Made by a program: the position numbers and the translations under genes. The notes under the pieces were generated by a model. The model saw only the letters and a list, made by a program, of their open reading frames with translations. It had not been told where the DNA came from and searched no databases. Below are positions 1 through 40,208 of a stretch of DNA of 40,208 bases, one piece after another. The stretch's first letter is position 1; the number at the start of each line of letters is the position of its first letter. Source of the DNA: a virus (lineage: Duplodnaviria; Heunggongvirae; Uroviricota; Caudoviricetes); IMG/VR virus record IMGVR_UViG_2671180254_000014. One strand, 5' to 3'.

Positions 1-267
1 ATGAGGGTATCCAGACAAGCATCGAATAATTTGTTTGTTCGAGAGGGGTGTGACTGGTCTGCTAAAGCGGTATATGCAGCCCTTGAAAACAAAGGCACAG
101 ACCTCCCTGAACTGGAAAGGGAGTTAGGATTAAAAAGCGGATCAATGCGCAATGTGTTTTACCGCCAGTGCCGTAAATACGAAGCCGCCATCGCCGAAAA
201 AATAGGGGTTGAACCTGCTGTAATCTGGCCCAGCAGATACCAGGTGGACGCCAGAGAAGTGGCTTGA
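1..267 (+). CDS. ner: Ner-like DNA-binding regulator (Mu Ner/Nlp family)
   Basis: 88-aa ORF ending ...EPAVIWPSRYQ, matching the Mu Ner C-terminus; directly upstream of the transposase as in Mu; starts at window base 1 so the upstream limit is untested. Confidence 0.75.
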   Translation: MRVSRQASNNLFVREGCDWSAKAVYAALENKGTDLPELERELGLKSGSMRNVFYRQCRKYEAAIAEKIGVEPAVIWPSRYQVDAREVA

Positions 268-277
268 TGGGGGATGT

Positions 278-2368: not shown

Positions 2369-2441
2369 AATAAAAAAATAACCCGAGGGGTGACTCAGGT
2401 TATTTGAGGTTTCAGTCTCGGAGAATGCTGTCTCAAGCGAG

Positions 2442-3383
2442 GTGAATAATATGACCGATATTAACGATGTAATCAAGACCATTGATGAACTTATTGATGG
2501 CGGCGTACTGACGCAGTATGCCATCGCCAGAGAGGCGGGAATTTCCGACGGCACATTATCGGCTTTCCGTAAGGGAAAATATAAAGGCGATAACGCTGCT
2601 GTGGCTGCTTCCCTGCGCTCCTGGTATGAGAACTGGAATAAACAAAGCGCACTGCCGGAACCGCCGCAGTTTGTGGAAACTCAGACAGTCCAGGAGCTGC
2701 GCGCACTGTTTCAGGCGGTTCGCCTGATGGGCTGTATTAACGTTATTGTGGGCGTACCGGGTGTGGGTAAAACGGCCACTGCCCGTAATTACTGCCAGGA
2801 GCAACCAAACACCTGGATGATCACCCTGTCACCCGCGCACTCCAGCGTCACGGAGTGTCTGCTGGAGCTGGCCGATGCGCTGGGGATTGATTACACCCGC
2901 GCGAACAAAGGGGCATTATCCCGCGCCATCCGCCGTCGCCTGACGGGAACGCGTGGACTGGTGATTGTGGATGAGGCGGATCATCTTGGTATTGACGGTC
3001 TGGAGCAACTCCGGGCAATTCAGGACGCCACGGGGATCGGGATGGTGCTTATTGGTAACCCGCGCGGATTGTTTAAAGGTGGACGCCGCGCCTTTGATGA
3101 TTTATCGCGCCTGTTCAGCCGTCTTGCCCGTACAAAACAACTTCGCAAGGCCAAAAAGGCGGATGTGCTGGCCATTGCCAGGGCATGGGGTATCAGTGGT
3201 GAGGCCGAGCTGGCCGTCATGCAGGCTATCGCTGAAAAGCCGGGAGCATTACGTGTTCTGACACATACGCTTAACCAGGCGTGGCTCACCGCCAGCGGTG
3301 AAGGCGCGGCGCTGACAGAAAAACATATTAATGCGGCCTTTAAAGAGGTTTATACCAACCCTGAATTACTCTCACAGGTGTGA
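2442..3383 (+). CDS. B: Mu B-like transposition ATPase
   Basis: 313-aa ORF with Walker A GVPGVGKT and Walker B-like VIVDEAD; follows transposase. Confidence 0.9.
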   Translation: MNNMTDINDVIKTIDELIDGGVLTQYAIAREAGISDGTLSAFRKGKYKGDNAAVAASLRSWYENWNKQSALPEPPQFVETQTVQELRALFQAVRLMGCINVIVGVPGVGKTATARNYCQEQPNTWMITLSPAHSSVTECLLELADALGIDYTRANKGALSRAIRRRLTGTRGLVIVDEADHLGIDGLEQLRAIQDATGIGMVLIGNPRGLFKGGRRAFDDLSRLFSRLARTKQLRKAKKADVLAIARAWGISGEAELAVMQAIAEKPGALRVLTHTLNQAWLTASGEGAALTEKHINAAFKEVYTNPELLSQV

Positions 3384-3607
3384 TTATGGCGGTATTTAAT
3401 ATTCCTGATATTTACGGACGCTTTTACCTGGTTAATTTCGATAACGTGAAGGTGATTTCACTGGCCGAAAATAAAGCATGTGGCGATTTACTTTTTGAAT
3501 TTAATGACCGCACACGAATGGTGATATCTGCCGGACTTGATCGCGAAGGTGCGACAGAAGTTTACAGCGGAATATGCCGTTCTGTTGGTGCGAAACAAGT
3601 CAGCTAA
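3380..3607 (+). CDS. hypothetical early protein
   Basis: 75-aa ORF overlapping B stop (GTG 3380 or ATG 3386); same strand. Confidence 0.45.
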   Translation: MIMAVFNIPDIYGRFYLVNFDNVKVISLAENKACGDLLFEFNDRTRMVISAGLDREGATEVYSGICRSVGAKQVS

Positions 3608-3874
3608 ATGAGGTGTTATATGAATATGCAATCCTGCGGTAACAAAATGAATTTATTCGACTCCCTGAACAGCGCGCGCCGTCTGACCGAACTTGCCGGT
3701 GCGGTACTGGAACGCAGTAAGCGCTATCCGCAACGTTTTGCACTGAAAACCACGCCGCCGGTAGGCAACGTGCAGGGAACCGGTGAAATTGAAATCACCA
3801 TACAGACCAACGGCCTGCGCCGCCGTGTGAAGGCCACCCGCATCAGCGGCTGCACGGTTTACTGGGAGGTGTGA
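3608..3874 (+). CDS. hypothetical early protein
   Basis: 88-aa ORF, tightly packed; alternative ATG at 3620. Confidence 0.45.
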   Translation: MRCYMNMQSCGNKMNLFDSLNSARRLTELAGAVLERSKRYPQRFALKTTPPVGNVQGTGEIEITIQTNGLRRRVKATRISGCTVYWEV

Positions 3875-3875
3875 G

Positions 3876-4157
3876 GTGAAAAAAAATCTCATTGCATGGG
3901 CGTGGTCGAGTGGTCTTATTGAGTTTGGTTACGTCCTGCCGGAAGGTGCATTGCCGATAGTTGCCGGAAAGCCCGCCACGGTACGGCATGTGATTGATGT
4001 TGTGGCGCGTCATGGACGCGATGAACAGGAACAGCTACTGGTTCCTGGAATACCGGAAGCGGTGACGGAAGAAGAAGCCTTTAATGCCATGGTTCAGTTC
4101 TGCCGTGAGGTCAGACGCCGGGTCAGTTATCCAAACAGAACGAGGGCCAGAGGATGA
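3876..4157 (+). CDS. hypothetical early protein
   Basis: 93-aa ORF starting 2 nt after previous stop. Confidence 0.5.
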   Translation: MKKNLIAWAWSSGLIEFGYVLPEGALPIVAGKPATVRHVIDVVARHGRDEQEQLLVPGIPEAVTEEEAFNAMVQFCREVRRRVSYPNRTRARG

Positions 4158-4426
4158 GTAAAGTCGTGCGCATTATTTTCGAATACAAGGAGGACGTTAT
4201 CCGTAAAAACGCTGATGGAACAGTGCACATGGGGGTAAGTCTGGATATACGTTCAACCGGAATAAAGCAGAAAAATGATAGCCCCGCCATGATTTTTGGG
4301 GTGGTTATGCTGGCAGAAAGCAGAAACTTCGCAGAGCTTGTGGCAATGAAAGCCAGTGCATTCATGAAAGACAGGGGCATGGCTTCCGGGGTTATTAACG
4401 GTAATGAATTTAATCAGCAGGGGTAA
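4154..4426 (+). CDS. hypothetical early protein (paralog 1 of tandem pair)
   Basis: 90-aa ORF with ATGA overlap to previous gene; N-terminus MSKVVRIIFEY. Confidence 0.5.
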   Translation: MSKVVRIIFEYKEDVIRKNADGTVHMGVSLDIRSTGIKQKNDSPAMIFGVVMLAESRNFAELVAMKASAFMKDRGMASGVINGNEFNQQG

Positions 4427-4430
4427 TTCC

Positions 4431-4724
4431 ATGAGCAAAGTACGCGTTATTTTTGAATTTGAGCATGTTTCGCATGACGAAAAACCGGCAGGCAATGACA
4501 GTGTTGAAGTGCATGAAAAGATTGGTGTGGATGTAAAAACAGAACGTGATACGGATAACAGGCCGACGTCACTCTGTGACGTTTATGCAAGTATTCTCCA
4601 GTATCACAGTCCTGAAATTATTCAGTTTCTCTCAGCGGAATTTCAGGCATCTGTACAGGCTTTTGGGGCGGATGCCATCATTAAACGCCACCGCGTGCAT
4701 AAAGCATCAGGCACACTGCAATAA
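4431..4724 (+). CDS. hypothetical early protein (paralog 2 of tandem pair)
   Basis: Internal ATG of ORF 4404..4724; N-terminus MSKVRVIFEFE parallels the preceding gene. Confidence 0.5.
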   Translation: MSKVRVIFEFEHVSHDEKPAGNDSVEVHEKIGVDVKTERDTDNRPTSLCDVYASILQYHSPEIIQFLSAEFQASVQAFGADAIIKRHRVHKASGTLQ

Positions 4725-4735
4725 GGAAAAACAAA

Positions 4736-5266
4736 ATGGCTAAACGCGTTACAAAATTAAAGGCCGCAGCCGAGGCAGCACCGCAGACCCGTGAAGAGGT
4801 CAGCCGCGATATCCGACGCTTTGGGGATATGCAGCGTGAGGCACTACGCCTGGAAACGGCGATGAATGACGAAGTGGCAGAAATCACCGCCCGTTATACG
4901 CCGCAGATTGAAAACCTTAAAAAAGAAATCAAAGTGCTTTTTAAGGGGATTCATGACTGGTGTAAAACCAACCGCAATGAGCTGACGAACGGCGGCGAAA
5001 CCAAAACAGCCAATCTGACCACCGGAACGGTGTCATGGCGGCTGGGAACGCCATCATGCAGCGTCAGCCGTGATGTGGAAGGCGTGATTGAAATGCTGCG
5101 CCGTATGGGCCTTGAGCGCTTCATCCGCACGAAAGAGGAAGTGAATAAGCAAGCTGTCCTGGCGGAGCCAGATGCGGTGAAGGGCATTGCCGGTATAAAG
5201 GTGAATAAAGGCGCTGAAAGTTTTTATGTCGAGCCTTTTGAACAGGACGCCGGACTGAATAAATAA
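4736..5266 (+). CDS. gam: Gam-like host-nuclease inhibitor (DNA-end binding)
   Basis: 176-aa ORF; motifs RLETAMNDEVAEIT, TNGGETKTANLTTGTVSWR, ERFIRTKEEVNK, PFEQ match Mu Gam as I recall it. Confidence 0.85.
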   Translation: MAKRVTKLKAAAEAAPQTREEVSRDIRRFGDMQREALRLETAMNDEVAEITARYTPQIENLKKEIKVLFKGIHDWCKTNRNELTNGGETKTANLTTGTVSWRLGTPSCSVSRDVEGVIEMLRRMGLERFIRTKEEVNKQAVLAEPDAVKGIAGIKVNKGAESFYVEPFEQDAGLNK

Positions 5267-5363
5267 CACCGCATTAAATCTTTAAATATCACATCGTGTT
5301 AATTATGGCGCTCGCGTCAGGGGACTGCCTGCGCCTGTAAACTGAAAATAAGGAACAGGAAAT

Positions 5364-5906
5364 ATGGCATATTTTTATTTCAAATTAGACATAGTGTACA
5401 CAAATAAATATTTAACCGAATATCAGCGGGATGTTTTACCGCTACGCAACAGTATTCTTCGGGCATTACTGAAAAATACAGGCGCTGCCGGATTGCGCTT
5501 AAAGCCGTTCGCCATGGACGTAATCAGTGAGTTTTATTTTTCTGGTTCTCTGCCTGCGGGCTGGCGTAAGCGCGATGATGTGGCTTTTATCGGGGACGGA
5601 CCGTGCTTTATTGCCAGACCTGATGAGTCATGCCCTGAAGGTCCGGCGATTGCCGCAATGATTGAAACCGCTGAACGTGAGTTAAGAAAGCGTCCTGATT
5701 TCCTTGTCTGGCTCTGTGAAAAGCTGGGGGTAATGAGAATCCCCTCCATGTTTAACACGGACTCCTGGTGGACCCCGTCGCTCTCCCGTGATGCCCTGTG
5801 CGTGGTGTTTAAAGTAGGCGCTTATGGCAGGGAAATAAAAGGGGGTATTCCTGAAGAATGCCAGGAAATTAAACATTCTGAATATGTGGCGCTGACGGAG
5901 GAATAA
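5364..5906 (+). CDS. hypothetical early protein
   Basis: 180-aa ORF after a 97-bp intergenic gap; AAGGA-type RBS. Confidence 0.5.
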   Translation: MAYFYFKLDIVYTNKYLTEYQRDVLPLRNSILRALLKNTGAAGLRLKPFAMDVISEFYFSGSLPAGWRKRDDVAFIGDGPCFIARPDESCPEGPAIAAMIETAERELRKRPDFLVWLCEKLGVMRIPSMFNTDSWWTPSLSRDALCVVFKVGAYGREIKGGIPEECQEIKHSEYVALTEE

Positions 5907-5909
5907 TTC

Positions 5910-6443
5910 ATGATTGATGCAAAAGTGCTTGAAGGGGTTAAAAGCTGGCTGCGTTTTTCTGGCCGTCTGACCAGTCGTTCTCTGGCAGAAAAAATGAATA
6001 TGCCGCTATCCTCCATGGTTTATTTTCTGCGTGATGCGGTCGATGCCGGGGTGCTGACGGACCGTAACGGTTTTTATGATATTCCGCGTCCCCGCCCGGT
6101 GCAGGCGGTTCGTCGCAAATGCAGCCAGGAAGGTGCGGCTGATGATGTTCAGTGGTGCAGCTTCAGAAAATCCCTGCCGTGGATTGAGGGGCATGATATT
6201 CCGTCGATGGCGTGGGAATTTGCTCAGGGAGTACTGACCTGCGAAACCGTTTATGTGGTGGCTGAAGTTGATGAGCAGGCCATGAAAGAAGGCGTGCCCC
6301 AGTTTGTGATGGCGTATATCGACATTCGCCTGGGCGTCATTATCTGCGGCTTAAGCGGCTGGAACATCACCGGGCGCGTTCTGCGTTACCTGATTATTGA
6401 CCGGACAGCGGCATCGGCAGGGATATCTGCGGAGGTGGCGTAA
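5910..6443 (+). CDS. hypothetical early protein
   Basis: 177-aa ORF 3 nt after previous stop. Confidence 0.5.
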   Translation: MIDAKVLEGVKSWLRFSGRLTSRSLAEKMNMPLSSMVYFLRDAVDAGVLTDRNGFYDIPRPRPVQAVRRKCSQEGAADDVQWCSFRKSLPWIEGHDIPSMAWEFAQGVLTCETVYVVAEVDEQAMKEGVPQFVMAYIDIRLGVIICGLSGWNITGRVLRYLIIDRTAASAGISAEVA

Positions 6444-8557: not shown

Positions 8558-9043
8558 ATGAATCGCGCTTCCCTGATTACCTTAATACATGTCGCAAAAC
8601 GCGATCTACAGCTTGACCATGATACCTATACATCCGCGCTGCTGGCAGCCACCGGCAAATCCAGTTGCCGTGATATGTCACCCGGTGAGTTATCCCGCGT
8701 GCTGGATGTTTTCAAAAAACGCGGTTTTAAAGTGCGTCANNNNNNNNNNNNNNNNNNNNNNNNNNNNNNNNNNNNNNNNNNNNNNNNNNNNNNNNNNNNN
8801 NNNNNNNNNNNNNNNNNNNNNNNNNNNNNNNNNNNNNNNNNNNNNNNNNNNNNNNNNNNNNNNNNNNNNNNNNNNNNNNNNNNNNNNNNNNNNNNNNNNN
8901 NNNNNNNNNNNNNNNNNNNNNNNNNNNNNNNNNNNNNNNNNNNNNNNNNNNNNNNNNNNNNNNNNNNNNNNNNNNNNNNNNNNNNNNNNNNNNNNNNNNN
9001 NNNCAGCCCTGGATATGTCGGAACGTGCAGTGATGAGTTATGA
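8558..9043 (+). CDS. GemA-like protein (Mu gene 16 family), interrupted by N-run
   Basis: N-terminus MNRASLITLIHVAKRDLQLDHDTY... resembles Mu GemA; N-run 8740-9003 hides the middle, and the 3' end could be 9043 or 9083 depending on frame. Confidence 0.5.
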   Translation: MNRASLITLIHVAKRDLQLDHDTYTSALLAATGKSSCRDMSPGELSRVLDVFKKRGFKVRXXXXXXXXXXXXXXXXXXXXXXXXXXXXXXXXXXXXXXXXXXXXXXXXXXXXXXXXXXXXXXXXXXXXXXXXXXXXXXXXXXXXXXXXXSPGYVGTCSDEL

Positions 9044-26100: not shown

Positions 26101-27445
26101 CACGCCGGGGCGTGGCTCCTTTCGTGGCGTACCGTTCCTGGTTTATCAGGAGCAGCGGGAACGGGGCGGACGTAACATTGTGCGCCGTGAATACCCACTG
26201 CGTGAAAGCGGCGGTGCGGATGATCTGGGGCCAAAACTCCCGGAGTTCACATTCACGGTTCTAGTGACCGGAGACGATCTTCAGACACAGCGAAGCCGCC
26301 TGCGTGATGCGCTGCGTGCACCCGGTGCCGGTGAACTGATGCACCCGGATTACGGCACGTTAAACGTGCTGATAAACAGCTTTGAAAGCCGTTATAACGC
26401 CAGCGAGCAGGGAACGGTTGAGTTCACGATCAACGTGATCCCCGCCAGTGACGATACCGCCCCTTCGGTGGCAGAAGATACGGCAGCTGCGCTGGAGCAG
26501 AAAAGCGGCTCAGCAATGAATCAGCTGTTTAACACACTTTCAGACGGCTGGACGGTGATTTCAGACGGTCTGCATGATGTACAGGCCATGACCGACACCA
26601 TCAGCGATAAAATTGATGCGCTGGAGAATGCCGTTTCAGGGATGGGGATTGTGCAGGATATCAGTGCCTTTACGGCCAGTTTTACTGCCCTGAAAGGGAA
26701 TGCCGCCGCCCTGATTAATGCGCCCCGTCGCATGGCTGAATCGCTGGCCGGAATGTTTGCCGTGCTGGCGGGGCTGCCCGGCGATCCTTCCCTGTCGCTG
26801 ACCGGAAAAGCCGGAACGCCGTCCGGCAGCCTGACCACAAACCGTGACAGCACGACAGAGCAGGCCATGCCGCAGCTGTACCGCACACTTTCTTCCCTGC
26901 GTTACACCCTCAGCGAACAGGATGATCCGCAGCGCCTGATTGGTCTGACGCCTGCGGCACAGAACAATATCCGTCTGCTGCGGAGCGTCATGCAGAGTGC
27001 AGCCCTGGTGTCGCAGGCGCAGACGGTCGGAAAACTGCTGGATCAGGTCATCCGGCAGAATACGACGCACGTTCAGGATACTGACCGTGCGGGCGGACTG
27101 GCCTGGCTGGAAAGTTCTGCTGATGTGCAGCGTATCAACCGGGATTTGAGCGATGCCATGGAACAACAGGTGCTGGATCTGTCCGCACAGGGCCATACCG
27201 GCACCGCCCTTGCATTACGTGATGCAGGGCTTGCGCTGACAGAAGATTTAACCACGCGGAGCGTGCATCTTCCCGGTGCTTTTCAGGTCATGGTGCGAAC
27301 CACCGAACCGGCACTGGTCACGCTGTACCGTGCCACCGGTAACAGCCGCCGCTGGCAGTATTTTGTCCGCAGAAACAATATCCCCGATCCGGTTTTTGTT
27401 CCGGGTGGCCGCCGCGTGGAGGTGATCAGTGAGCAGCAGGATTGA
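26087..27445 (+). CDS. DNA circularization protein N-like tail protein
   Basis: 452-aa ORF after tape measure; Mu N position. Confidence 0.75.
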   Translation: MASTDTPGRGSFRGVPFLVYQEQRERGGRNIVRREYPLRESGGADDLGPKLPEFTFTVLVTGDDLQTQRSRLRDALRAPGAGELMHPDYGTLNVLINSFESRYNASEQGTVEFTINVIPASDDTAPSVAEDTAAALEQKSGSAMNQLFNTLSDGWTVISDGLHDVQAMTDTISDKIDALENAVSGMGIVQDISAFTASFTALKGNAAALINAPRRMAESLAGMFAVLAGLPGDPSLSLTGKAGTPSGSLTTNRDSTTEQAMPQLYRTLSSLRYTLSEQDDPQRLIGLTPAAQNNIRLLRSVMQSAALVSQAQTVGKLLDQVIRQNTTHVQDTDRAGGLAWLESSADVQRINRDLSDAMEQQVLDLSAQGHTGTALALRDAGLALTEDLTTRSVHLPGAFQVMVRTTEPALVTLYRATGNSRRWQYFVRRNNIPDPVFVPGGRRVEVISEQQD

Positions 27446-28553
27446 ACTGTATATCGGCGGCAGTATTTTTTCCGGCTGGCTGACGGTCAGCGTCCGTCGC
27501 TCGCTGGAGCATCTGGCCGGGTCGTTTGAACTGGGGCTGATGCTGCCCGGTGAGCGCATCCCCTCAGCCCTGCGGACCGGTCAGTCCCTGACGCTCAGAA
27601 TTAACGGGCAGACGGTCATCAGTGGCTGGCTGGATCAGGTCAGTCAGCGGATCAGTGCAACCCGTCATCAGATCAGCATCAGCGGTCGGGATAAAACCGG
27701 CGACCTGGTGGACTGTGCCGCCATCCATCCCGGCAGCCAGTGGCGCAACCGGACGCTGGCACAGATTGCCGCAGATTTATGTGCGCCCTTCGGGATAGCC
27801 GTGCGCTGGCAGGTTAACGACGACACGGCTGCACGCCCCTTCAGCTCTTTTACGCTGGAAAACTCAGAAACCGTGGCGGATGCGCTGACCCGTGCTGCCC
27901 GGCATCGCGGGGTGCTGGTGACCAGTAATGCTGACGGCGATCTGGTGTTCACCCAGGCAGGAAGCCAGCAGACGGACAGACTGGTGCTGGGAGATAACCT
28001 GCTTGATGCCGATTACAACACGGACTGGCGAGGACGATACAGCGAATACCGTGTCCGGGGACACGGGCGCGGTGGTGGCAAACGGGGAGACAGCGAATCC
28101 GCCGCCCGTCTGGCAGCACCTGTGGGCGTCATCAGTGATGAGCAGATCGGCCGCTACCGGCCGAAAATCATCCTCGCCGATCAACAGACAGACATCACCG
28201 GTGCACGGCAGCGTGCCCTGCGTGAAATGCGCCGTGCGATTGCCCGTTCAGAACGGTTTTCTGCCACCGTGCGTGGCTGGTTCCGGGATGATGGCCGGTT
28301 ATGGGATGTCAATCTGCTGACCGGTGTTTCAGCCCTGCGTTTCGGTATAGAACAGACTGAACTGCTGGTCTGTCAGGTGGAGTTTTTACTTGATGAGCAT
28401 AACGGGGAAGTCACCCGGCTGGTACTGGCACCGCGTGACGGCTTTATCGTTCCGGCAGAGCCGGACAGTAAGGGCCGGGGTGGTTCCGGTGACGATGTTG
28501 ATGCCTTTATTCGCCAGCAGATGAAAAAACAGGGGATCAGCTTTGATGAATGA
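27429..28553 (+). CDS. tail/baseplate protein (Mu P-like)
   Basis: 374-aa ORF; Mu gp44 position. Confidence 0.75.
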   Translation: MSSRIELYIGGSIFSGWLTVSVRRSLEHLAGSFELGLMLPGERIPSALRTGQSLTLRINGQTVISGWLDQVSQRISATRHQISISGRDKTGDLVDCAAIHPGSQWRNRTLAQIAADLCAPFGIAVRWQVNDDTAARPFSSFTLENSETVADALTRAARHRGVLVTSNADGDLVFTQAGSQQTDRLVLGDNLLDADYNTDWRGRYSEYRVRGHGRGGGKRGDSESAARLAAPVGVISDEQIGRYRPKIILADQQTDITGARQRALREMRRAIARSERFSATVRGWFRDDGRLWDVNLLTGVSALRFGIEQTELLVCQVEFLLDEHNGEVTRLVLAPRDGFIVPAEPDSKGRGGSGDDVDAFIRQQMKKQGISFDE

Positions 28554-29157
28554 TGAAGTGTTCAGCCGCCTGATTGCCCCGGTAACGCGCGGTATTCGCC
28601 TGTTGTTTGGCCGGGGCGTTCTGACCGGCACACATGACGAACTGAAAATGCAGAATGTGCAGCTCACCGGCATGGACGGCGAAACCTTTGATGATGTGGA
28701 GCGTCCCCAGCAGTACGGGCAGATCAGCGTTCCCCTGCCGGGTGCGGAAACCTTTTTTGCCTGTCTGGGCGGACAGCGGGATCAGACTGTGGTGCTTGTG
28801 GTGGAAGACCGGCGCAGCCGCCCGACCGGACTCACAGCCGGAGATACGGGGGTGTATCACCATGAGGGGCACCGGATACGGTTAACAAAGGATGGCCGCA
28901 TTATTGTGACATGCAAAATGCTGGAGATTTACGCCGACGAGGGGATGCGGGTGGATACGCCGGAAGCCACCTTTACGGGCAATGTGACGGTGGATAAGAA
29001 CCTGCATGTTAAGGGTAATTTCGCGCTTGAGGGTACGGGGAAATCTCAGGGACTGTTCACAATGTCGGATGCCGTTATTGCAGGGATACGGTATTCCGGC
29101 CATGTGCATCATGATAACGGCGAAGGCAGTAAGACAGGAGTGCCGGAGAATGGCTGA
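28543..29157 (+). CDS. baseplate assembly/spike protein (Mu gp45-like)
   Basis: 204-aa ORF in baseplate cluster. Confidence 0.7.
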   Translation: MMNDEVFSRLIAPVTRGIRLLFGRGVLTGTHDELKMQNVQLTGMDGETFDDVERPQQYGQISVPLPGAETFFACLGGQRDQTVVLVVEDRRSRPTGLTAGDTGVYHHEGHRIRLTKDGRIIVTCKMLEIYADEGMRVDTPEATFTGNVTVDKNLHVKGNFALEGTGKSQGLFTMSDAVIAGIRYSGHVHHDNGEGSKTGVPENG

Positions 29158-29587
29158 TATTGCAATTGTGTGGGATCAGGGATGCGGTTCGCTGCAACTG
29201 AACGGTGCCGACCTGCTGACGGATGACAGTCTGCTGACGGCCGTTCTGATTTCGCTGTTTACTGACCGCCGGGCGCTGGCATCGGATGAAATCCCTGACG
29301 GTACGCGCGACCGCCGGGGATGGTGGGGAGACAGTTTTCGCCCGCGCCCCATTGGCTCCCGTCTGTGGCTTCTCAGCCGGGAAAAAACGCTGGCCTCGGT
29401 GATAAGCCGTGCCCGTGCTTACGCGGATGAGGCGCTGGGCTGGCTCAGTCAGGATGGCGTGGCGTCATCCGTGGTCTGTCATGCAGAACGTGTGGGACAC
29501 GCGCGGCTGGCGCTTTCGGTGCGCATAACCCTGCCTGATGGTTCAGTGAGGCCCATGATTTTTTATGCTGATCTTAAGGGGGAGTAA
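29150..29587 (+). CDS. baseplate protein (Mu gp46-like)
   Basis: ATG 29150 (MADIAIVWDQG...) inside ORF 29006..29587; coupled to gp45 stop. Confidence 0.65.
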   Translation: MADIAIVWDQGCGSLQLNGADLLTDDSLLTAVLISLFTDRRALASDEIPDGTRDRRGWWGDSFRPRPIGSRLWLLSREKTLASVISRARAYADEALGWLSQDGVASSVVCHAERVGHARLALSVRITLPDGSVRPMIFYADLKGE

Positions 29588-30669
29588 TGCCTTATCAGCC
29601 TTTACCGCTGGCACAGTTAATCACGCAGACACAGCAGGATATCAGCCAGCGCCTGCCCGGCTCGCAGCCGGGTGTGAATGAAACCACCCTGAATGCCATT
29701 GCTTACGCTCAGGCAGGGTTATCTGCTCAGGAGCATGAGCATCTGGCCTGGATTGCGCGTCAGATCATCCCGACCGAAGCCGATGAAGCCGAACTGCTGA
29801 AACACTGTGCATTCTGGGGCGTCATGCGTAAGCCTGCCTCTCGGGGGGACGGGCCGGTTCAGCTGATGCTGACCACGGATGCGGGGATCAAGGAAGGTGT
29901 GCTTCTCCAGCGAAGTGATGGCGTGGTTTACCGTATCACCACCTCCCTGACCGGTAAGGCCGGTACGCTGAATGTCAGTGTGGAAGCCGAAAGTGCCGGT
30001 CGTGCGGGGAATGCCCCGGCAGGGACAAAACTGACATTTATCACACCGCAGGCGGGGATCAACCAGACGGCCACGGTGACCGGAACGGGGATCACCGGTG
30101 GTGCGGATGTGGAAACCGTGCCGGAGCTGCTTTCCCGTCTGGTTTTCCGGGTGCAGAATCCACCGTCCGGCGGCACGCAGTATGATTTTGAACGCTGGGC
30201 GCGTGAAGTGCCGGGCGTGACGCGGGCATGGTGCCGCCCGGAATGGCCGCAGGCGGGCAGCGTGGGGGTAACGTTTGTTCAGGATAATAACCCGGATATT
30301 TTCCCCGGTGACGGTGATGTTCAGCGGGTGGCGGATTATATCCGCAGTCATGATGATCCGGCGACCGGCCAGCCTGTCGGACAGCCTCTGGGGCCGACGG
30401 TGACCGTGTTTAAACTGACCAATAAGCCGGTGCCCTTCAGCATCAGGATCATCCCGAAAACACCGGAGAATCAGGCGGCCGTAAAACAGGCGCTGACCGA
30501 CCTGTTGTATAACGAATCCCGGCCCGGCGGTCTGGTTCTGCCGTCGTCTTTCTGGCGGGCGGTGGCAGGGGTGAAAAATCTGGAGGATTTTGAAGTGCGC
30601 AGTCCGCTGACGTCAGTTCAGGCGGGAGACAGTGAGCTGCTGACGGTAGGAGAAATCACATGGCTGTAA
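29587..30669 (+). CDS. baseplate J-like protein (Mu gp47-like)
   Basis: 360-aa ORF, start overlaps previous stop. Confidence 0.8.
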   Translation: MPYQPLPLAQLITQTQQDISQRLPGSQPGVNETTLNAIAYAQAGLSAQEHEHLAWIARQIIPTEADEAELLKHCAFWGVMRKPASRGDGPVQLMLTTDAGIKEGVLLQRSDGVVYRITTSLTGKAGTLNVSVEAESAGRAGNAPAGTKLTFITPQAGINQTATVTGTGITGGADVETVPELLSRLVFRVQNPPSGGTQYDFERWAREVPGVTRAWCRPEWPQAGSVGVTFVQDNNPDIFPGDGDVQRVADYIRSHDDPATGQPVGQPLGPTVTVFKLTNKPVPFSIRIIPKTPENQAAVKQALTDLLYNESRPGGLVLPSSFWRAVAGVKNLEDFEVRSPLTSVQAGDSELLTVGEITWL

Positions 30670-31220
30670 CCCTGACCCCGCATCAGCGCGCCCTGTTGCA
30701 GTTACTGCCTGACGGGCTGGCATGGGACAAGCGTCCGTCATCCGTACTGGCATCATTATGTCTGGGCCTCAGTCATTCGACAGCGCGTGTATCCTGGACG
30801 GGTAAACAGCTGCTTGCCGAGCGTTTCCCTGACACGTCGCGCCTGCTGCTGGAAGACTGGGAGCGTTATCTCGGGCTTCCCGAGTGTGATATGGCCGGAG
30901 CCACCCTCACGGAGCGACAGCGTTATGCCGGAAATAAATACCGGATGAAGCCCTCGCTGAACCGTGAATTTTATATCCGGTTTGCGGCGGAGTTTGGTTA
31001 TCAGATTGACATTCAGCCCTCACCGGATTCGCAGTGGGTCAGTATTGTCACGATTAACAGTGAAACCGGCTACCGGAATATGAATGTGCTGGATGATATT
31101 CTCACGCCGCTGCGTATTTATGAAGGCGGTGCGCTGGAATGTATTCTGAACCGTTATAAGCCTGCATGGCAGACGTTTATTTACGTTTATGCAAACAGCC
31201 ATGAAGAGGAGACTATTTAA
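30660..31220 (+). CDS. tail protein (Mu gp48-like)
   Basis: 186-aa ORF between baseplate J and tail fibre. Confidence 0.7.
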   Translation: MAVTLTPHQRALLQLLPDGLAWDKRPSSVLASLCLGLSHSTARVSWTGKQLLAERFPDTSRLLLEDWERYLGLPECDMAGATLTERQRYAGNKYRMKPSLNREFYIRFAAEFGYQIDIQPSPDSQWVSIVTINSETGYRNMNVLDDILTPLRIYEGGALECILNRYKPAWQTFIYVYANSHEEETI

Positions 31221-32096
31221 TGTTTCATGTTGATAATAATTCCGGCGTGGCGAATATGCCTGCGCTGGCACCGGCGCAGAGTAATACCACCACCTGGTTT
31301 ACCGAAGGTGACGGACAAAAAGGTATCAGCTGGATTGGTCAGGACTGGCTGAATATTCTCCAGGCCGAACTGCTGAATATTCTGGCTGAAGCCAGTATTC
31401 AGCCGGATAAGGCGCAGTTAAACCAGCTTACGCTGTCCATTAAAGCCATTATCGCTGCGAATGCCTTTTCCCGGAAAAATAACCTGAAAGAAATTGCTGA
31501 TGCCGGTGCGGAGGCCCAGCGTCTGGCCCGTGGTTATCTTGGTCTGGGGACGCTTGCCACAAAAAACAGTCTTGGTCCCGCTGACGTTAATGCCCTGGCG
31601 AAGGATCAGAATCTCGCCGACCTGGAGAATAAGGGAACCGCCCGTAATAATCTGGATGTTTACAGNNNNNNNNNNNNNNNNNNNNNNNNNNNNNNNNNNN
31701 NNNNNNNNNNNNNNNNNNNNNNNNNNNNNNNNNNNNNNNNNNNNNNNNNNNNNNNNNNNNNNNNNNNNNNNNNNNNNNNNNNNNNNNNNNNNNNNNNNNN
31801 NNNNNNNNNNNNNNNNNNNNNNNNNNNNNNNNNNNNNNNNNNNNNNNNNNNNNNNNNNNNNNNNNNNNNNNNNNNNNNNNNNNNNNNNNNNNNNNNNNNN
31901 NNNNNNNNNNNNNNNNNNNNNNNNNNNGCCCGGAACATGGGAAAGCTGGGATCTGAATCTGGGGGGCGGCAATGTTCTTACCGGAATTAAAGTACAGGAT
32001 GTCGGTAAGAATACGGCAGATAACGTCGGCGGCGTGTATTACCGGCCGTTGCAGTATCTGTTAAATGGAGCATGGGTGACGGCTGCAAGTATATAA
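31220..32096 (+). CDS. tail fibre protein (constant N-terminal part plus currently joined variable C-terminus), interrupted by N-run
   Basis: N-terminal 148 aa to 31665, N-run 31666-31927, C-terminal 56 aa to TAA 32094-32096 in a different frame, so the gap length is not true. Confidence 0.65.
31531..31665 (+). repeat. left inverted repeat of invertible tail-fibre segment (at least 135 bp)
   Basis: Identical to the reverse complement of 33146-33280; ends at an N-run so true extent unknown. Confidence 0.85.
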
Positions 32097-32105
32097 TGAT
32101 ATTCA

Positions 32106-32123
32106 GAAGGCCTTCCGGCCTTC
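32106..32123 (+). terminator. candidate terminator hairpin after tail-fibre gene
   Basis: GAAGGCC-ttcc-GGCCTTC followed by TTTATTA; between convergent fibre and fibre-assembly genes. Confidence 0.4.
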
Positions 32124-32127
32124 TTTA

Positions 32128-32649
32128 TTACTGTGGCTGCTCAGGCCATTTAATGGCGTTAAATTCAGCTTCTGTTTTAATGGCGGGTAGTTCCATTTTC
32201 TTCACCTGACTGATGTATGCCATCCATTGGGTAAGTGCTGCTCTGTCTTCATCGCTGATGGTGCCCAGTTGTAGCTCCGTTCTCCAGTCATTAATTTTTT
32301 CATATGCCTGATTAAGATATGACTGGCGCATTGCTTCCAGTTTTCTTGCGTAGTTAACCGGAATACGGGAGATTATGCCATTATCAAACTTCCAGTTTCC
32401 TGAAATATCCGTGCCTTCAGGGAGTTCATCGACCTCAACCACAGAAAACCCCGCAGGATACAGCGCCGAGGCGTCCTGTGATATTGAGCAGATAACGCCG
32501 CTGTCAGGTGTTATGCAAAGTTTATATTTTTTGGTGAATAATGGCAGGGATTCGTAGAAATCCTTACCATCTTCACTCTGGAAATACTGAACATTATTAC
32601 CATATGGCATATTTTCAGGATAATAACGGGTTATATTTTTTAGTTCCAT
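32128..32649 (-). CDS. tail fibre assembly protein (Mu U/U'-like)
   Basis: 173-aa minus-strand ORF directly downstream of the alternate fibre C-terminus on the same strand. Confidence 0.75.
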   Translation of the reverse strand: MELKNITRYYPENMPYGNNVQYFQSEDGKDFYESLPLFTKKYKLCITPDSGVICSISQDASALYPAGFSVVEVDELPEGTDISGNWKFDNGIISRIPVNYARKLEAMRQSYLNQAYEKINDWRTELQLGTISDEDRAALTQWMAYISQVKKMELPAIKTEAEFNAIKWPEQPQ

Positions 32650-32700
32650 AAAATCCTCCTGGAAATAAATCTGTTTTAAAATATATTATTTACTGACTAT

Positions 32701-33280
32701 TTATAACTGAGATACCGTAATCCATGTACCTCCGACTAATTTTTGCAGGGGTCTGAATGCTATAAAATCGTTTGAAGCATCAACTTTACTGTCAATCTGC
32801 AGGCCTGCCATAACATTACCGTACGCAGAGTAATATGCCCCACCGTACATTACCTGCCTGTTCTCTGCTCCCAGCCTGATATCCTGGATATATCGGGAAT
32901 CCGCATCCTGCTGTGTTATACCAGAAGTGATGTTTATGTCCTGCGTCCCGTCAAAGGGAACCCCATTAATATTTCTTGGGGTGGCGAGTCTATTCGCGGC
33001 AACGGCGGTGCCGTCCGATGGCAGAGCATTCGCCGCCCTGTTTACCGTTTCCCGTAAACCGACGTTATCGATAAAAGCCCCTTTATCCGGAATGTCTGCG
33101 CCGTTCTGCTCCCTGCGCAGGTAACGGTTATCACCTTCGCTTTTGCTGTAAACATCCAGATTATTACGGGCGGTTCCCTTATTCTCCAGGTCGGCGAGAT
33201 TCTGATCCTTCGCCAGGGCATTAACGTCAGCGGGACCAAGACTGTTTTTTGTGGCAAGCGTCCCCAGACCAAGATAACCA
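32701..33280 (-). CDS. alternate tail-fibre variable C-terminal segment (S'-like), 5' end in N-run
   Basis: Hand translation of minus strand from 33280: [44 protein letters not shown] (identical to residues 105-148 of the plus-strand fibre) then a divergent ~149 aa ending ...[10 protein letters not shown], stop at 32701-32703; not in ORF track because it lacks an ATG. Confidence 0.7.
33146..33280 (-). repeat. right inverted repeat of invertible tail-fibre segment
   Basis: Reverse complement identical to 31531-31665; abuts N-run 33281-33331. Confidence 0.85.
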
Positions 33281-33331
33281 NNNNNNNNNNNNNNNNNNNN
33301 NNNNNNNNNNNNNNNNNNNNNNNNNNNNNNN

Positions 33332-33834
33332 GTGCAGGATGTGAGCTGTTTTTCGAAGACAGAATAAGCGGTAAGACAAGGGAGCGTCCCGGACTTAAAC
33401 GCGCATTAAAGCGACTCCGGCCAGGGGATACCCTGCTGGTCTGGAAACTGGATCGCCTTGGACGCAGTATGCAGCACCTTGTCCTTTTAACAGAAGAACT
33501 CCGGCAACGCGGCGTTAACTTCCGCAGCATTACGGACAATATTGATACATCCACTCCCATGGGACGTTTCTTTTTCCATATAATGGGCGCGCTGGCGGAA
33601 ATGGAGCGGGAACTCATTATTGAACGTACACGCGCGGGTCTTGCTGCTGCCCGTGCTCAGGGGCGTCATGGCGGCAGACCTCAGAAACTGACAGAGAAAG
33701 AGCGGGAGCAAATCGCCCGTTTGCTGGCTAATGGCGAGTCCCGTAAACAAATCGCACTGATATTTGATATTGGCCTTTCCACCCTTTATCGTTATTTTCC
33801 TGCCTCACCAGCTCCGTCACCAAAAGTACCGTGA
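33332..33834 (+). CDS. gin: serine DNA invertase (Gin/Hin/Pin/Cin family), N-terminus lost in N-run
   Basis: In-frame translation from 33334 gives ...ELFFEDRISGKTRERPGLKRALKRLRPGDTLLVWKLDRLGRSMQHL... then GALAEMERELIIERT... and a C-terminal helix-turn-helix; catalytic Ser region falls in the gap. Confidence 0.85.
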
Positions 33835-33919
33835 CGCTTTTTTGAATTTCCGCAAAACACATATTTTTCAGCGGTCGCTATTCTGACTCTGTTTAATTCA
33901 GAAACAGGCAGAAAAGACG

Positions 33920-35974
33920 ATGTCAGACTCCAAGTGGAAAATGCTCTCCGCCATGCCCGGAGAGTTTTCAGTCAAGGTTGCCGGTGGCACGGTGGCATTT
34001 ATTGAAAGCCCTTTCCGCCCTTCGGGTAATAAAGGGGGGATCACCTTCGCAGACTGCGTGATCCGCTTCAGCACGAAAGAGCCATTATGGGTAATGCCGG
34101 TATCCGGTAATCCCAGTGCAGAAATCACCAGTTCAGGCGTGACTGGCATCATTCCAATCACATCTGACGTGGCCGGAACGCTCACGCCCTCCGACTGGAA
34201 TGCACCGGATAACGCCGGGCCTTCCGGTAGCACGAATGGCAGCAGTTCAGAGCCGGAATATTACTTTGTTGTCATTCTCGCGGGTCAGTCAAATGGCATG
34301 GCCTACGGCGAGGGGCTGCCGTTACCGGATTCGTTTGACCGCCCGGACCCACGCATTAAGCAACTGGCACGCCGCAGTACGGTAACGCCCAACGGTACGT
34401 CGTGTACATACAACGACATCATTCCGGCAGACCACTGCCTGCATGATGTTCAGGATATGAGCGGGATAAACCACCCGAAAGCTGATCTGGCAAAAGGCCA
34501 GTACGGGACTGTCGGTCAGGGGTTGCATATTGCCAAAAAACTGCTTCCCTATATCCCACAGAATGCCGGGATACTTCTGGTGCCCTGTTGTCGTGGCGGG
34601 TCAGCATTCACCACTGGAGCCGACGGCTCATTCAGTGAGGCCAGCGGTGCTTCCGCTGATTCTTCACGCTGGGGGGCCGGTAAACCTCTGTATCAGGACC
34701 TGGTAAGCCGCACCAAAGTCGCGCTGGCGAAAAACCCGAAAAACAAACTTCTGGCTGTGGTCTGGATGCAGGGAGAGGCAGACCTTGCCTCAGGAAGCCA
34801 GCAGCATAATAGTTTATTCACGGCCATGGTTCAGCAGTTCAGAACTGACCTGGCTCCGCTTGCTGCGCAGTGCGTGAGTGGAAATGCCACCACGGTGCCG
34901 TGGATTTGCGGTGATACCACGTATTACTGGAAAAACGCTGGCACCGATAAATATGAGGCAGTATACGGTGGCTACAAAGGCAAGGAAGCACAGAAAATTT
35001 TCTTTGTACCGTTCCTGACGGATGAGAATGGACAGAGCACGCCAACGAATGCTCCGGCGGAAGACCCGGATATTGTGGCTGTCGGGTATTACGGTGCAGC
35101 ATCCCGAACCCAGGGCAGTTTTGTTTCGACACAGCGTGACAGCCATTTCAGCTCATGGGCACGCAGGGGCGTCATTTCAGACCGTCTGGCCTCAGCTATT
35201 ATGCTCCATGCAGGGCGCACGGCTGAACTGATGCGCGGGCAGACCGTGACACCACCGGATGAGAAGCCGTCACCTGATACACCATCAAAACCGTCCACGC
35301 CACCCGCAGACACCACGACGATGAGTACGCTATTTGCTTACCGGGCATCTGAGTCTGAAGGACGGTTGACACCACAGGGTTGGGCTGCCGGAGGTGGCAA
35401 GGCTCAAATCGTGGATGATGCCGGAGCCAGCGGGGGTAAGGCAATGAAACTGACCAAGGAAACAGGAAGAGCCCCCTGGTACCTTGAGCATGATGCTGGT
35501 AATGGTGCGGACCTGCTGGGTAAAGGTGGTCTTGTCAGTTGTCGTTTTAAACTCGATGGCGCGCTTACGGCTAATCAGTACGCACTGGCGCTGTACTGGC
35601 CGGTTTCTGCCCTGCCGCAAGGGGTTACTCTGGAAGGAAATGCCGGTCATAACCTGCTGGCATCGTTCTACGTACAGAGCGATGCCACAGACCTTAACGT
35701 GATGTATCACAAAGGAAACACGGCGCAGAACACGAAGCTGGGGTCATTCGGCGCATTTAATAACGAATGGCATACGCTGGGCTTCCGTTTTGCCGGTAAC
35801 AACAGTATTGAGGTGACGCCGGTCATTGATGGTAAGGACGGGACACCATTCATGCTGTCGCAGTCTCCGGTCGGCACGTTTACGGCAGACAAGTTGCGCG
35901 TGACCGATATCACTAAAAATGCGACTTACCCGGTACTGATTGACAGTATCGTGGTGGAAGTGAATAACGCGTAA
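33920..35974 (+). CDS. SASA/SGNH-type carbohydrate esterase (sialate O-acetylesterase-like) with C-terminal beta-sandwich-like domain
   Basis: 684-aa ORF; GQSN motif at residues 122-125 (YYFVVILAGQSNGMAYGEG) and downstream WMQGEAD block; Ser/Pro/Thr-rich linker then ~200-aa Gly/Asn-rich C-terminal domain. Confidence 0.55.
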   Translation: MSDSKWKMLSAMPGEFSVKVAGGTVAFIESPFRPSGNKGGITFADCVIRFSTKEPLWVMPVSGNPSAEITSSGVTGIIPITSDVAGTLTPSDWNAPDNAGPSGSTNGSSSEPEYYFVVILAGQSNGMAYGEGLPLPDSFDRPDPRIKQLARRSTVTPNGTSCTYNDIIPADHCLHDVQDMSGINHPKADLAKGQYGTVGQGLHIAKKLLPYIPQNAGILLVPCCRGGSAFTTGADGSFSEASGASADSSRWGAGKPLYQDLVSRTKVALAKNPKNKLLAVVWMQGEADLASGSQQHNSLFTAMVQQFRTDLAPLAAQCVSGNATTVPWICGDTTYYWKNAGTDKYEAVYGGYKGKEAQKIFFVPFLTDENGQSTPTNAPAEDPDIVAVGYYGAASRTQGSFVSTQRDSHFSSWARRGVISDRLASAIMLHAGRTAELMRGQTVTPPDEKPSPDTPSKPSTPPADTTTMSTLFAYRASESEGRLTPQGWAAGGGKAQIVDDAGASGGKAMKLTKETGRAPWYLEHDAGNGADLLGKGGLVSCRFKLDGALTANQYALALYWPVSALPQGVTLEGNAGHNLLASFYVQSDATDLNVMYHKGNTAQNTKLGSFGAFNNEWHTLGFRFAGNNSIEVTPVIDGKDGTPFMLSQSPVGTFTADKLRVTDITKNATYPVLIDSIVVEVNNA

Positions 35975-37308: not shown

Positions 37309-37509
37309 ATGTATCGAAACATACGGTGCCGACATTGTAACAAGCTACTGGCACGAGCCAGCTTCAGTTATCTGGAAGTTAAATGTCCGCGCTGTAAAAC
37401 CCTCAATCAAATCACATCTCAGAGCGCCACAGAGCACCCCACATACACAAGGAAATCCTGTCGTGGGGAACAGAAAGCAAGTTACATCCCGTATCATCAG
37501 CACGCCTGA
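37309..37509 (+). CDS. com: Com, zinc-finger translational activator of mom
   Basis: [26 protein letters not shown] closely parallels Mu Com as I recall it (IRCKNCNKLL...RCPRCK); GCAGGAGG RBS; ATG 37309 inside ORF 37264..37509. Confidence 0.8.
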
Positions 37510-38200
37510 ACTTATTCACTATAACGACAATATCGTCGGTTATGGCTCCCGTGAGTTACGGGTTGAGACAATAAGTTGCTGGCTGGCCCGGCTGGTCGTC
37601 GTCAATAAACATTACAGCCATCGTTTCGTAAATAATTCCTACCTTCATCTGGGCATATTTTCAGAACGGGAGCTGGTTGGCGTAATGCAATGGGGTTATG
37701 CCCTTAATCCAAACAATGGTGCACGCGTCGTAACTGGCACGCAGAACCGCGAATATATGGAGCTTAACCGGTTATGGCTGCATGACTGTATGCCGAGAAA
37801 CTCCGAATCAAGGGCAATCAGTTACGCGCTCAAACTAATCAGACAACTTTATCCGCAGGTGCAGTGGGTTCAGTCGTTTGCAGATGAGCGTTGTGGCTGT
37901 CTTGGTGTCGTGTACCAGGCAAGCAATTTTGATTATGTAGGCAGTCATGAAACAACATTCTATGAACTTGATGGCGAGTGGTATCACGAGATTTGCAAGA
38001 ATGCAATCAAACGAGGAGGACAGCGAGGTGAACATCTGCGGGCTAATATCGACAGAGCCAGTGTTCATAAATTCCGTCAGTTTCGTTACATCCGGTTTCT
38101 GGACAAGAGAGCCAGAAAACGCCTTAACACAAAGCTATTCAAAGTCCAGCCTTACCCAAAACCACAAACAGTTAAAACTGGTTTGAAAGAGAGTGAATGA
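37463..38200 (+). CDS. mom: Mom-like DNA modification protein; start codon uncertain
   Basis: ORF 37268..38200 overlaps com 3' end in another frame as in Mu; GTG 37463 preceded by AAGGAAA is the only plausible start near the com stop; identity rests on synteny with com. Confidence 0.65.
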
Positions 38201-38332
38201 ACGCTTAAAAACTCATTCTAAAACTCAAAAGAAAAGCGCCGATTTAGTATCAAATAAGTTGCGTATCGGTGTTTTTCAGCGGTATCAAATGAAATGCAAA
38301 TCGGTATCAAAAAAATCGCCGCGCTATAATCA

Positions 38333-38517
38333 ACGCCACGGGGTTACGCCATGTCTGGCATTTACGCTGTACGGACACCTTAAAAGGTCCTTTACTGGAA
38401 AGTTATGAAATCTGCCCAATACCGGAAGTGGTGCTGGCAGCGCCAGAAGATTTGGTCGACTCTGCGCAGCGGCTTAGCGAGGTATGTCAGTGGCTGGCGG
38501 AAGCTGCACCGACGTAA
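38333..38517 (+). pseudogene. hyaF: 3' fragment of host hyaF (hydrogenase-1 operon), interrupted by the prophage
   Basis: Frame ending TAA 38515-38517 translates ...INATGLRHVWHLRCTDTLKGPLLESYEICPIPEVVLAAPEDLVDSAQRLSEVCQWLAEAAPT, matching my recalled HyaF C-terminus; lies directly upstream of appC; not in ORF track because it has no start codon. Confidence 0.55.
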
Positions 38518-38644
38518 AAAGACGGTAAGTATCGCTTTCAGTCTTATGAATATCGCAATCGGCGAATACCTCTGGTCGTAGAGTTTCAGGATAAAGAGGG
38601 AGATCTAACATTATCGGGTTATTTTTCTCTCTTCGCCTACAGGA

Positions 38645-40208
38645 GTGCGCATGTGGGATGTCATTGATTTATCGCGCTGGCAGTTTGCTCTGACCGCGCT
38701 GTATCACTTTTTATTTGTACCCCTTACCCTGGGGCTGATTTTTTTGCTGGCTATCATGGAAACCATTTACGTGGTCACCGGCAAAACAATCTACCGCGAT
38801 ATGACGCGCTTCTGGGGTAAGCTCTTCGGTATCAACTTTGCTCTTGGCGTGGCTACCGGCCTGACCATGGAGTTTCAGTTTGGTACTAACTGGTCATTCT
38901 ATTCCAACTATGTGGGCGATATTTTTGGCGCACCGCTGGCGATGGAAGCATTAATGGCCTTCTTCCTCGAATCCACCTTTGTCGGGCTTTTCTTCTTCGG
39001 CTGGCAGCGGCTGAATAAATACCAGCACCTGCTGGTGACGTGGCTGGTGGCGTTCGGTTCAAATCTCTCTGCATTGTGGATATTGAATGCCAACGGTTGG
39101 ATGCAATACCCGACCGGTGCGCATTTTGATATCGACACCCTACGTATGGAGATGNNNNNNNNNNNNNNNNNNNNNNNNNNNNNNNNNNNNNNNNNNNNNN
39201 NNNNNNNNNNNNNNNNNNNNNNNNNNNNNNNNNNNNNNNNNNNNNNNNNNNNNNNNNNNNNNNNNNNNNNNNNNNNNNNNNNNNNNNNNNNNNNNNNNNN
39301 NNNNNNNNNNNNNNNNNNNNNNNNNNNNNNNNNNNNNNNNNNNNNNNNNNNNNNNNNNNNNNNNNNNNNNNNNNNNNNNNNNNNNNNNNNNNNNNNNNNN
39401 NNNNNNNNNNNNNNNNNNNNTGGCGGCGATGGAAGGGGAGTGGCAAACGGAACCTGCTCCTGCACCGTTCCATGTGGTTGCCTGGCCGGAACAGGATCAA
39501 GAGCGTAACGCCTTTGCCATCAAAATTCCCGCGCTGTTAGGGATCCTCGCCACTCACTCATTAGATAAAACCGTGCCGGGTCTGAAAAATTTGATGGCTG
39601 AAACCTACCCACGCTTGCAACGCGGACGTATGGCCTGGCTGTTAATGCAGGAAATATCGCAAGGCAATCGTGAGCCGCATGTGTTGCAGGCATTCCGGGA
39701 ACTGGAAGGTGACCTGGGCTACGGCATGTTGCTCTCCCGCTATGCGCCGGATATGAATCATGTCACAGCCGCACAGTACCAGGCGGCGATGCGTGGCGCG
39801 ATACCTCAGGTTGCGCCGGTATTCTGGAGTTTCCGCATCATGGTGGGCTGTGGTTCCCTGCCGCTACTGGTGATGCTGATTGCGCTTGTCCAGACGCTGC
39901 GTGGCAAAATCGACCAGCATCGCTGGGTGCTGAAAATGGCGCTCTGGAGTTTGCCGTTGCCGTGGATTGCGATTGAAGCCGGGTGGTTTATGACCGAGTT
40001 TGGTCGTCAGCCGTGGGCGATACAGGACATCTTACCGACATACTCCGCGCACTCCGCTTTAACCACAGGACAACTGGCTTTCTCACTGATCATGATCGTA
40101 GGGCTTTACACCCTGTTCTTAATCGCCGAAGTCTACCTGATGCAGAAATATGCCCGTCTGGGGCCGAGCGCGATGCAGAGTGAACAACCGACGCAGCAAC
40201 AGGGGTAA
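38645..40208 (+). CDS. appC: cytochrome bd-II ubiquinol oxidase subunit I (AppC/CbdA), interrupted by N-run
   Basis: N-terminus [28 protein letters not shown]...[22 protein letters not shown] is cytochrome bd subunit I, AppC paralog rather than CydA; N-run 39155-39420; stop at 40206-40208. Confidence 0.85.

Follow-up and report, generated by a model that had tools for sequence, protein, structure and literature searches.

The right end of an Sp18-type transposable prophage in hyaF, and the ends and target duplication of its family

Prophage and host genes at the locus

The window, that is, the whole 40,208-nucleotide stretch of DNA analysed here, is prophage up to position 38328 and Escherichia coli DNA, the 3' part of hyaF followed by appC, from position 38329 onwards. 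Its main features are the following.

1-38328, + strand: Sp18-type prophage, covered from the ATG of the ner-like gene (phage position 1125) up to the right terminus, collinear with Sp18 of strain Sakai
278-2368, + strand: DDE transposase, 696 aa (Pfam Mu-transpos_C and HTH_Tnp_Mu_1; weak rve hits)
2442-3383, + strand: MuB-like AAA+ target-DNA activator (Pfam Phage-MuB_C and AAA_22)
37309-37509, + strand: com, translational activator of mom (Pfam Zn_ribbon_Com; Com family annotation in relatives)
37463-38200, + strand: mom, DNA adenine modification, last gene of the prophage (Pfam Mom, E 8e-78; 78% identical to Mu Mom)
38201-38328, + strand: non-coding right end (attR), 128 bp, invariant in seven aligned relatives except for one T/C
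38247-38254, + strand: R3 core GTATCAAA, 75-82 bp from the terminus
38282-38289, + strand: R2 core GTATCAAA, 40-47 bp from the terminus and 22 bp from R1
38304-38311, + strand: R1 core GTATCAAA, with L1 as its mirror image at the left end (each 18-25 bp from its terminus)
38325-38328, + strand: terminal TATA-3' of the prophage; 19 flanks diverge after 38328
38329-38332, + strand: ATCA, predicted right copy of a 4-bp duplication, hyaF nucleotides 670-673 (from intact hyaF and eight of eight pairs in the family)
38329-38517, + strand: hyaF 3' fragment, codons 224-285 and stop (megablast, annotation mapping, HupH_C, protein identity)
38518-38650, + strand: hyaF-appC intergenic region, unchanged (within a 96-99.4% match to E. 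coli genomes)
38651-40208, + strand: appC, cytochrome bd-II subunit 1 (RefSeq annotation mapped; N run at 39155-39420; the window ends at the appC stop codon)

An earlier note on this DNA placed the right end of a prophage inside hyaF, upstream of appC, and took the reading frame ending at 38517 for the C terminus of HyaF. Both statements hold. Translation of 38329-38514 gives 62 amino acids that are 100% identical to residues 224-285 encoded by intact E. coli hyaF and that match positions 63-118 of the 118 in Pfam HupH_C; the stop codon lies at 38515-38517, and only the C-terminal 22% of HyaF falls within the window. The phage terminus adjoins hyaF codon 224, 322 bp upstream of the appC ATG, and hyaF resumes directly after 38328. 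The same note began appC at 38645, where a GTG merely opens the longest reading frame; the RefSeq start maps to the ATG at 38651.

The BLAST comparison that the note had suggested agrees with its reading. In a megablast of 38201-38644 against 5,426 complete E. coli genomes, the hyaF-appC DNA matched 5,416 of them at 96-99.4%, the match being confined to the right three quarters of the query, annotated as hyaF, with appC downstream. The whole query was covered by none of the 5,426, so that the insertion is absent from these genomes. The hyaF remnant carries a synonymous T at 38388 (GGT, for GGC in the aligned intact hyaF); the best complete-genome match, at 99.4%, differs by this mismatch and by a gap at the junction, and apparently no complete genome matches the remnant perfectly.

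All DNA before position 38329 belongs to a full-length transposable prophage of the Sp18 type, one of the Mu-like phages or 'saltoviruses'. A DDE transposase and a MuB-type AAA+ activator stand beside a repressor/ner module at the left end, and members of the family have the same precise termini at many unrelated chromosomal sites, with no att site (19 right flanks and at least 15 left flanks). Pfam HTH_35 was also found; in identical phages the repressor sits immediately beyond the left border of the window. Positions 1-6368 of the window match three prophages at other loci with 100% identity over these 6,368 bp, and position 1 of the window lies 1124 bp inside the left terminus of these prophages. 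The first 1124 bp of the phage, with the left end and the repressor, thus precede the window, which gives the prophage a length of about 39.45 kb. The right-end sequence occurs in 232 of the 5,426 complete E. coli genomes (about 4%), beside many different genes. In a protein look-up, the transposase had exact matches in 764 blocks and Mom in 2,424.

The prophage also has a cargo gene at 33920-35974, in the stretch between the invertase and com/mom. Its 684-aa product combines a SASA (sialate O-acetylesterase-like) domain with DUF6645; Mu has no counterpart of this gene at the same position, and its nucleotide identity to the Sp18 version is only about 69%. The window also contains runs of N at 8740-9003 (264 bases), 31666-31927 (262), 33281-33331 (51) and 39155-39420 (266), the third within the gin-like invertase gene (33262-33834) and the fourth within appC. 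They look like deliberate masking and not like assembly gaps, because the flanking frames keep their register.

The right terminus and its repeats

Where exactly does the phage end? We compared 19 unrelated right flanks: a first set of seven aligned flanks (hyaF, a JAB-domain gene, yeaW, dgcE, torS, cas7e and hofQ), those of Sakai (sorM) and F7508 (upstream of garL), and ten from contigs encoding an identical Mom protein. The phage sequence is common to all up to ...CGCCGCGCTATA and diverges at the very next base; the right-end sequence shared by the 19 insertions is ...AAAAAAATCGCCGCGCTATA, and each of the four bases A, C, G and T is found directly after it in one flank or another. This immediate divergence of 19 different flanks puts the end of the phage at 38328: the last phage base is 38328 (...TCGCCGCGCTATA), and hyaF starts again at 38329. 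The alignment of the window with Sp18 of O157 Sakai stops at exactly the same base. Intact hyaF reads GCTAT|ATCAACGCC at the insertion site, in the wider context ...GAGAGCTAT ATCA ACGCC.

The bracket of 38328-38333 previously given for the junction does contain the true border, 38328/38329. The phage end proposed along with it, ...ATAATCA, has to be abandoned in favour of ...GCTATA at 38328. That proposal had the phage finish at 38332 with a canonical CA-3', next to a Mu-like 5-bp duplication. It drew on the analogy with Mu (TG...CA ends, 5-bp duplication), and the border is indeed blurred by a megablast match to hyaF that apparently begins at 38323. This early start is an artefact, because the phage GCTATA resembles the GCTAT of hyaF and BLAST bridges the two with a 1-nt gap. 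Moreover, none of the 18 other flanks has ATCA next to the terminus; this tetranucleotide corresponds to nucleotides 670-673 of hyaF, and a 5-bp duplication is excluded in five of the eight prophages read at both junctions (next section). These results refute a phage end at 38332.

The same set of flanks bears on the possibility that the junction is an assembly chimera, in which the end of a prophage contig was joined to the hya-app region. The masked N runs in the window would fit such a mis-join, as would the multi-copy, clone-like presence of this phage in public data. However, the break coincides to the base with the terminus set by 18 other insertions, which would not be expected of a mis-join, and we consider a chimera very unlikely.

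Within the last 128 bp, the sole difference among the seven aligned relatives is a T/C variation at 38270, which lies between repeat sites. A scan of 38100-38700 for promoters and terminators gave nothing above shuffled sequences. Three direct repeats had been noticed here, at about 38248, 38281 and 38302; exact copies of the core GTATCAAA start at 38247, 38282 and 38304. This 8-mer has only four copies on both strands of the 40-kb window, and three copies within 82 bp were obtained in none of 1000 shuffles (shuffle mean, 0.8 copies). A looser pattern, GGTATCAAA with one mismatch, shows no window-wide enrichment (12 found against 7.2 expected), and the signal therefore lies in the clustering at the end.

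Read inwards from the terminus, the core is TTTGATAC. The left end was read in the prophages that share the first 6.4 kb of the window at 100% identity; it begins with TGTAACCAGGTGAATCATTTGATACC... and carries TTTGATAC cores at 18-25, 113-120 and 165-172 bp. The two ends together thus hold six cores, three per end, in uniform orientation relative to the terminus, that is, as inverted repeats. A fourth GTATCGG, at 38263, was rejected as a site, as it has no mirror at the left end.

The repeats had been put forward as candidate transposase-binding sites. Several observations argue for this: the right-end copies are invariant in all relatives, they are mirrored at the left end, and their spacing is like that of Mu. 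In addition, in the related Mannheimia phage described below, the positions of the sites are conserved while the core has changed along with the transposase, which is the behaviour expected of transposase-binding sites. With this Mu-like L1-L3/R1-R3 layout, it is very probable that the six repeats are sites of this kind.

Target duplication and the insertion in hyaF

Both junctions could be read in eight prophages of the family (in Sakai, F7508, JKHS016, 143, 2014C-3050, JE86-ST05, S1-CAM-01-A and HH35), and the left and right flanks overlap by 4 bp in all eight. The duplications are TAAA, ATAA, TAAG, TTCG, CTCG, TTCG, GACG and TACG. The right copy is preceded by the phage A in every pair. On the left, the matching target base reads T, A, A, C, G, A, T and C, so that in five pairs the two sides disagree at the fifth base and a 5-bp duplication is excluded there. 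The empty sites that we reconstructed for hofQ and dgcE match uninterrupted genomes at 156 of 156 bases; these are hence clean insertions with 4-bp duplications. At the level of the family, insertion leaves a short target-site duplication (eight of eight pairs, two empty sites), of 4 bp and not of the 5 bp anticipated in the earlier note.

We also considered other registers. A 5-bp duplication with the phage ending in ...GCTAT was rejected, since A always follows GCTAT whatever the fifth base of the target; a left end at GTAACC and a 6-bp ANNNNT duplication were discarded because they did not fit the flanks when checked by hand.

The ends of the family are 5'-T(G/A)...TA-3'. The right terminus is TA in all members and the left terminus TG in most. 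Two exceptions, HH35 and S1-CAM-01-A, start with TATAACC... instead of TGTAACC... and so have TA...TA ends, yet their 4-bp duplications are clean. The TA-3' end contrasts with the CA held to be conserved at the ends of Mu and of B3-like phages. Sp18-type phages would probably, then, have a transpososome geometry distinct from that of Mu, with a 4-bp stagger and a right transferred strand ending in TA-3' (as do some left ones). A 4-bp stagger or a TA end turned up for no enterobacterial transposable phage in the searchable literature, in which we also found no account of Sp18-type phage ends and no binding or transposition experiments on this family.

The duplicated tetranucleotides often end in CG (TTCG twice, CTCG, GACG and TACG), and TACG, CACG and GTCG also occur among left flanks. 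This very small sample suggests a target preference of the form NNCG, unlike that of Mu. The preference of Mu is the symmetric N-Y-G/C-R-N.

How did the prophage of the window come to lie in hyaF? We propose that DDE transposition carried a full-length Sp18-type prophage, some 39.45 kb in length, into hyaF at codon 224. This gene closes the hyaABCDEF operon, and the prophage points the same way as hya and app. The 696-aa transposase would assemble a transpososome on R1-R3, in the last 82 bp, and on the three mirrored sites of the left end, and would join the 3' ends of the phage to the target DNA with a 4-bp stagger. ATCA at 38329-38332 would then be the right copy of the duplication, and the left junction is predicted to read ...GAGAGCTATATCA|TGTAACCAGG..., or in a longer form 5'-...GGCGAGAGCTATATCA|TGTAACCAGGTGAATC...-3'. 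The predicted HyaF product would comprise residues 1-224 plus a Met, the cut falling within the HupH_C domain.

About 1.1 kb separates the left junction from the start of the window, no collection yielded it, and we therefore infer the simple insertion. The pattern GAGAGCTAT-N(0-8)-TGTAACCAGG... had no match in the genome contig or metagenome contig collections, nor had its version with TRTAACC in the viral contig collection or a generic left-end pattern in the genome contig collection. The 30-mer spanning the right junction was likewise without a match in the metagenome and viral contig collections. At the protein level, look-ups for the exact products of two junction-spanning ORFs (71 and 39 aa) gave no record. 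Homologue representatives did not include the predicted truncated HyaF, the short ones being unrelated frameshift variants, and eight exact candidates for it (two N-terminal variants with the endings IM, II, INVTR or INITR) are absent from the protein collection.

A right end abutting hyaF could also be combined with a left end that was moved elsewhere by deletion or inversion, or by recombination between prophage copies, in which case part of hya or more would be missing or displaced. Such rearrangements do occur in the family. In strain 2313, a prophage of this family lies between hyaE (about nucleotide 318) and torS without a duplication, and its flanks, GCGTG on the left and TATTC on the right, imply the loss of hyaF-appCBA-...-torS'; in 2010C-3347, the left and right ends are some 2.3 Mb apart; and the JKHS016 prophage has internal inversions. 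Against this, all eight readable left/right pairs are simple insertions with a clean 4-bp duplication, and the window shows no sign of rearrangement, its prophage being collinear with Sp18. We therefore leave a small but real chance to a displaced left end and regard a simple insertion in the genome of the window as quite likely. The account as a whole, that of an Sp18-type prophage inserted simply at hyaF codon 224 with an ATCA footprint and six end sites, is in our view likely to be correct.

The prophage of strain 2313 (NZ_AP027159.1, about 1253560-1292334) is a second, independent case in the hya region. The JKHS016 prophage (26621-34263) is near-identical apart from an internal inversion and deletions, which interrupt its portal, tape-measure and protease genes and leave it defective although its ends are perfect.

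Relation to other transposable phages and significance

The prophage of the window most resembles Sp18 of O157:H7 Sakai. Gene order is the same throughout, with 84-95% nucleotide identity; the last 125 bp are alike but for one T/C (window position 38270), the terminus is the same ...CGCCGCGCTATA, and the left end of Sp18, TGTAACCAGGTGAATC, is that of the phages identical to the start of the window. The two differ in their site, sorM for Sp18 and hyaF here, and in their immunity, tail-fibre and cargo regions, which have diverged. Sp18 was described as intact and as not circularising on induction (PMC2669165). The Sakai record has it begin one base inside the left terminus placed here and overshoots the right one by 5 bases, into sorM.

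The likeness to Mu is one of organisation. The order of modules (repressor, ner, A, B ... gin, com, mom) is shared, Mom is 78% identical, and each end carries three sites in both phages. The R1-R2 distance is 22 bp, and L1 stands about 95 bp off from L2 and L3; the layout of MuA sites in Mu, reportedly established by Craigie, Mizuuchi and Mizuuchi in 1984, has the same R1-R2 and L1 spacing. On the other hand, the core TTTGATAC bears no resemblance to the Mu consensus and the end sequences are unrelated. R3 is inverted in Mu and direct in the prophage of the window; Mu has TG...CA ends and a 5-bp duplication, against T(G/A)...TA and 4 bp in the present family. The transposase is 23% identical to MuA, about 29% to the A protein of D3112 and 44% to its counterpart in Mannheimia phage vB_MhM_3927AP2, and a phmmer search with it against the PDB did not reach MuA at E 1e-3. 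The window prophage thus has neither the MuA-type transposase and MuA sites (23% identity) nor the TG...CA termini and 5-bp duplication of Muvirus proper (Mu, D108, SfMu). Published target duplications measure 5 bp in Mu and 6 bp in B3 (PMC8705779).

By its transposase, vB_MhM_3927AP2 is the closest isolated phage. It has a repeated core 18 and 165 bp from its left terminus and right-end copies 22 bp apart, and its terminal sequences resemble ours (TGTAAGCGGTCGATTT versus TATAGCGCGGCGATTT). Its core is TTTTGCATAG and its right end a canonical ...CA; the host is another one, and the rest of the genome differs. If its R1 is placed 18 bp from the terminus, the deposited sequence (NC_028766.1) extends some 48 bp beyond the true right terminus (...CCGCTTACA); the extra 48 bp or so are possibly packaged host DNA left in the deposited genome.

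Ends other than TG...CA have a precedent in the TA-TA transposable prophages of Leptospira (PMC8705779). These are of the B3/Tn552 type, with 6-bp duplications, and as far as tested they have no sequence-level relation to the E. coli family. Transposable phages of Porphyromonas gingivalis provide a precedent for bounding repeats of 4 bp (PMC10367356), the only one that we found in the literature; they are phages of Bacteroidota, again with no sequence-level relation to the E. coli family as far as tested.

For the host, the insertion is an ordinary gene disruption by a transposable prophage, which splits the last gene of the hydrogenase-1 operon. HyaF (HupH), a hydrogenase-1 expression/formation protein, would lose the second half of its HupH_C domain. 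As hyaF is the last gene of hyaABCDEF, there is no downstream hya gene to suffer from polarity. The appCBA genes form a separate transcription unit with its own promoter (PMC4222967), and they retain 322 bp of native upstream DNA, made up of the 133-bp intergenic region and 189 bp of hyaF. Protein binding to the end sites, the left junction and any effect on the expression of hydrogenase-1 or appCBA are inferred. The earlier interpretation was right in kind, and the two details that it took from Mu, the CA end and the 5-bp footprint, were wrong.

For the family, the comparison yields base-exact ends, a six-site architecture and a 4-bp footprint with T(G/A)...TA ends. This family is a common one in E. 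coli: it includes a prophage of EHEC O157:H7 Sakai and is present in about 4% of complete E. coli genomes. Current annotations, that of Sp18 in the Sakai record among them, place its borders a few bases off, and software keyed to TG...CA ends and 5-bp duplications would overlook or wrongly trim Sp18-type elements. Defined ends could also be used to build a mini-transposon with a transposase unrelated to MuA.
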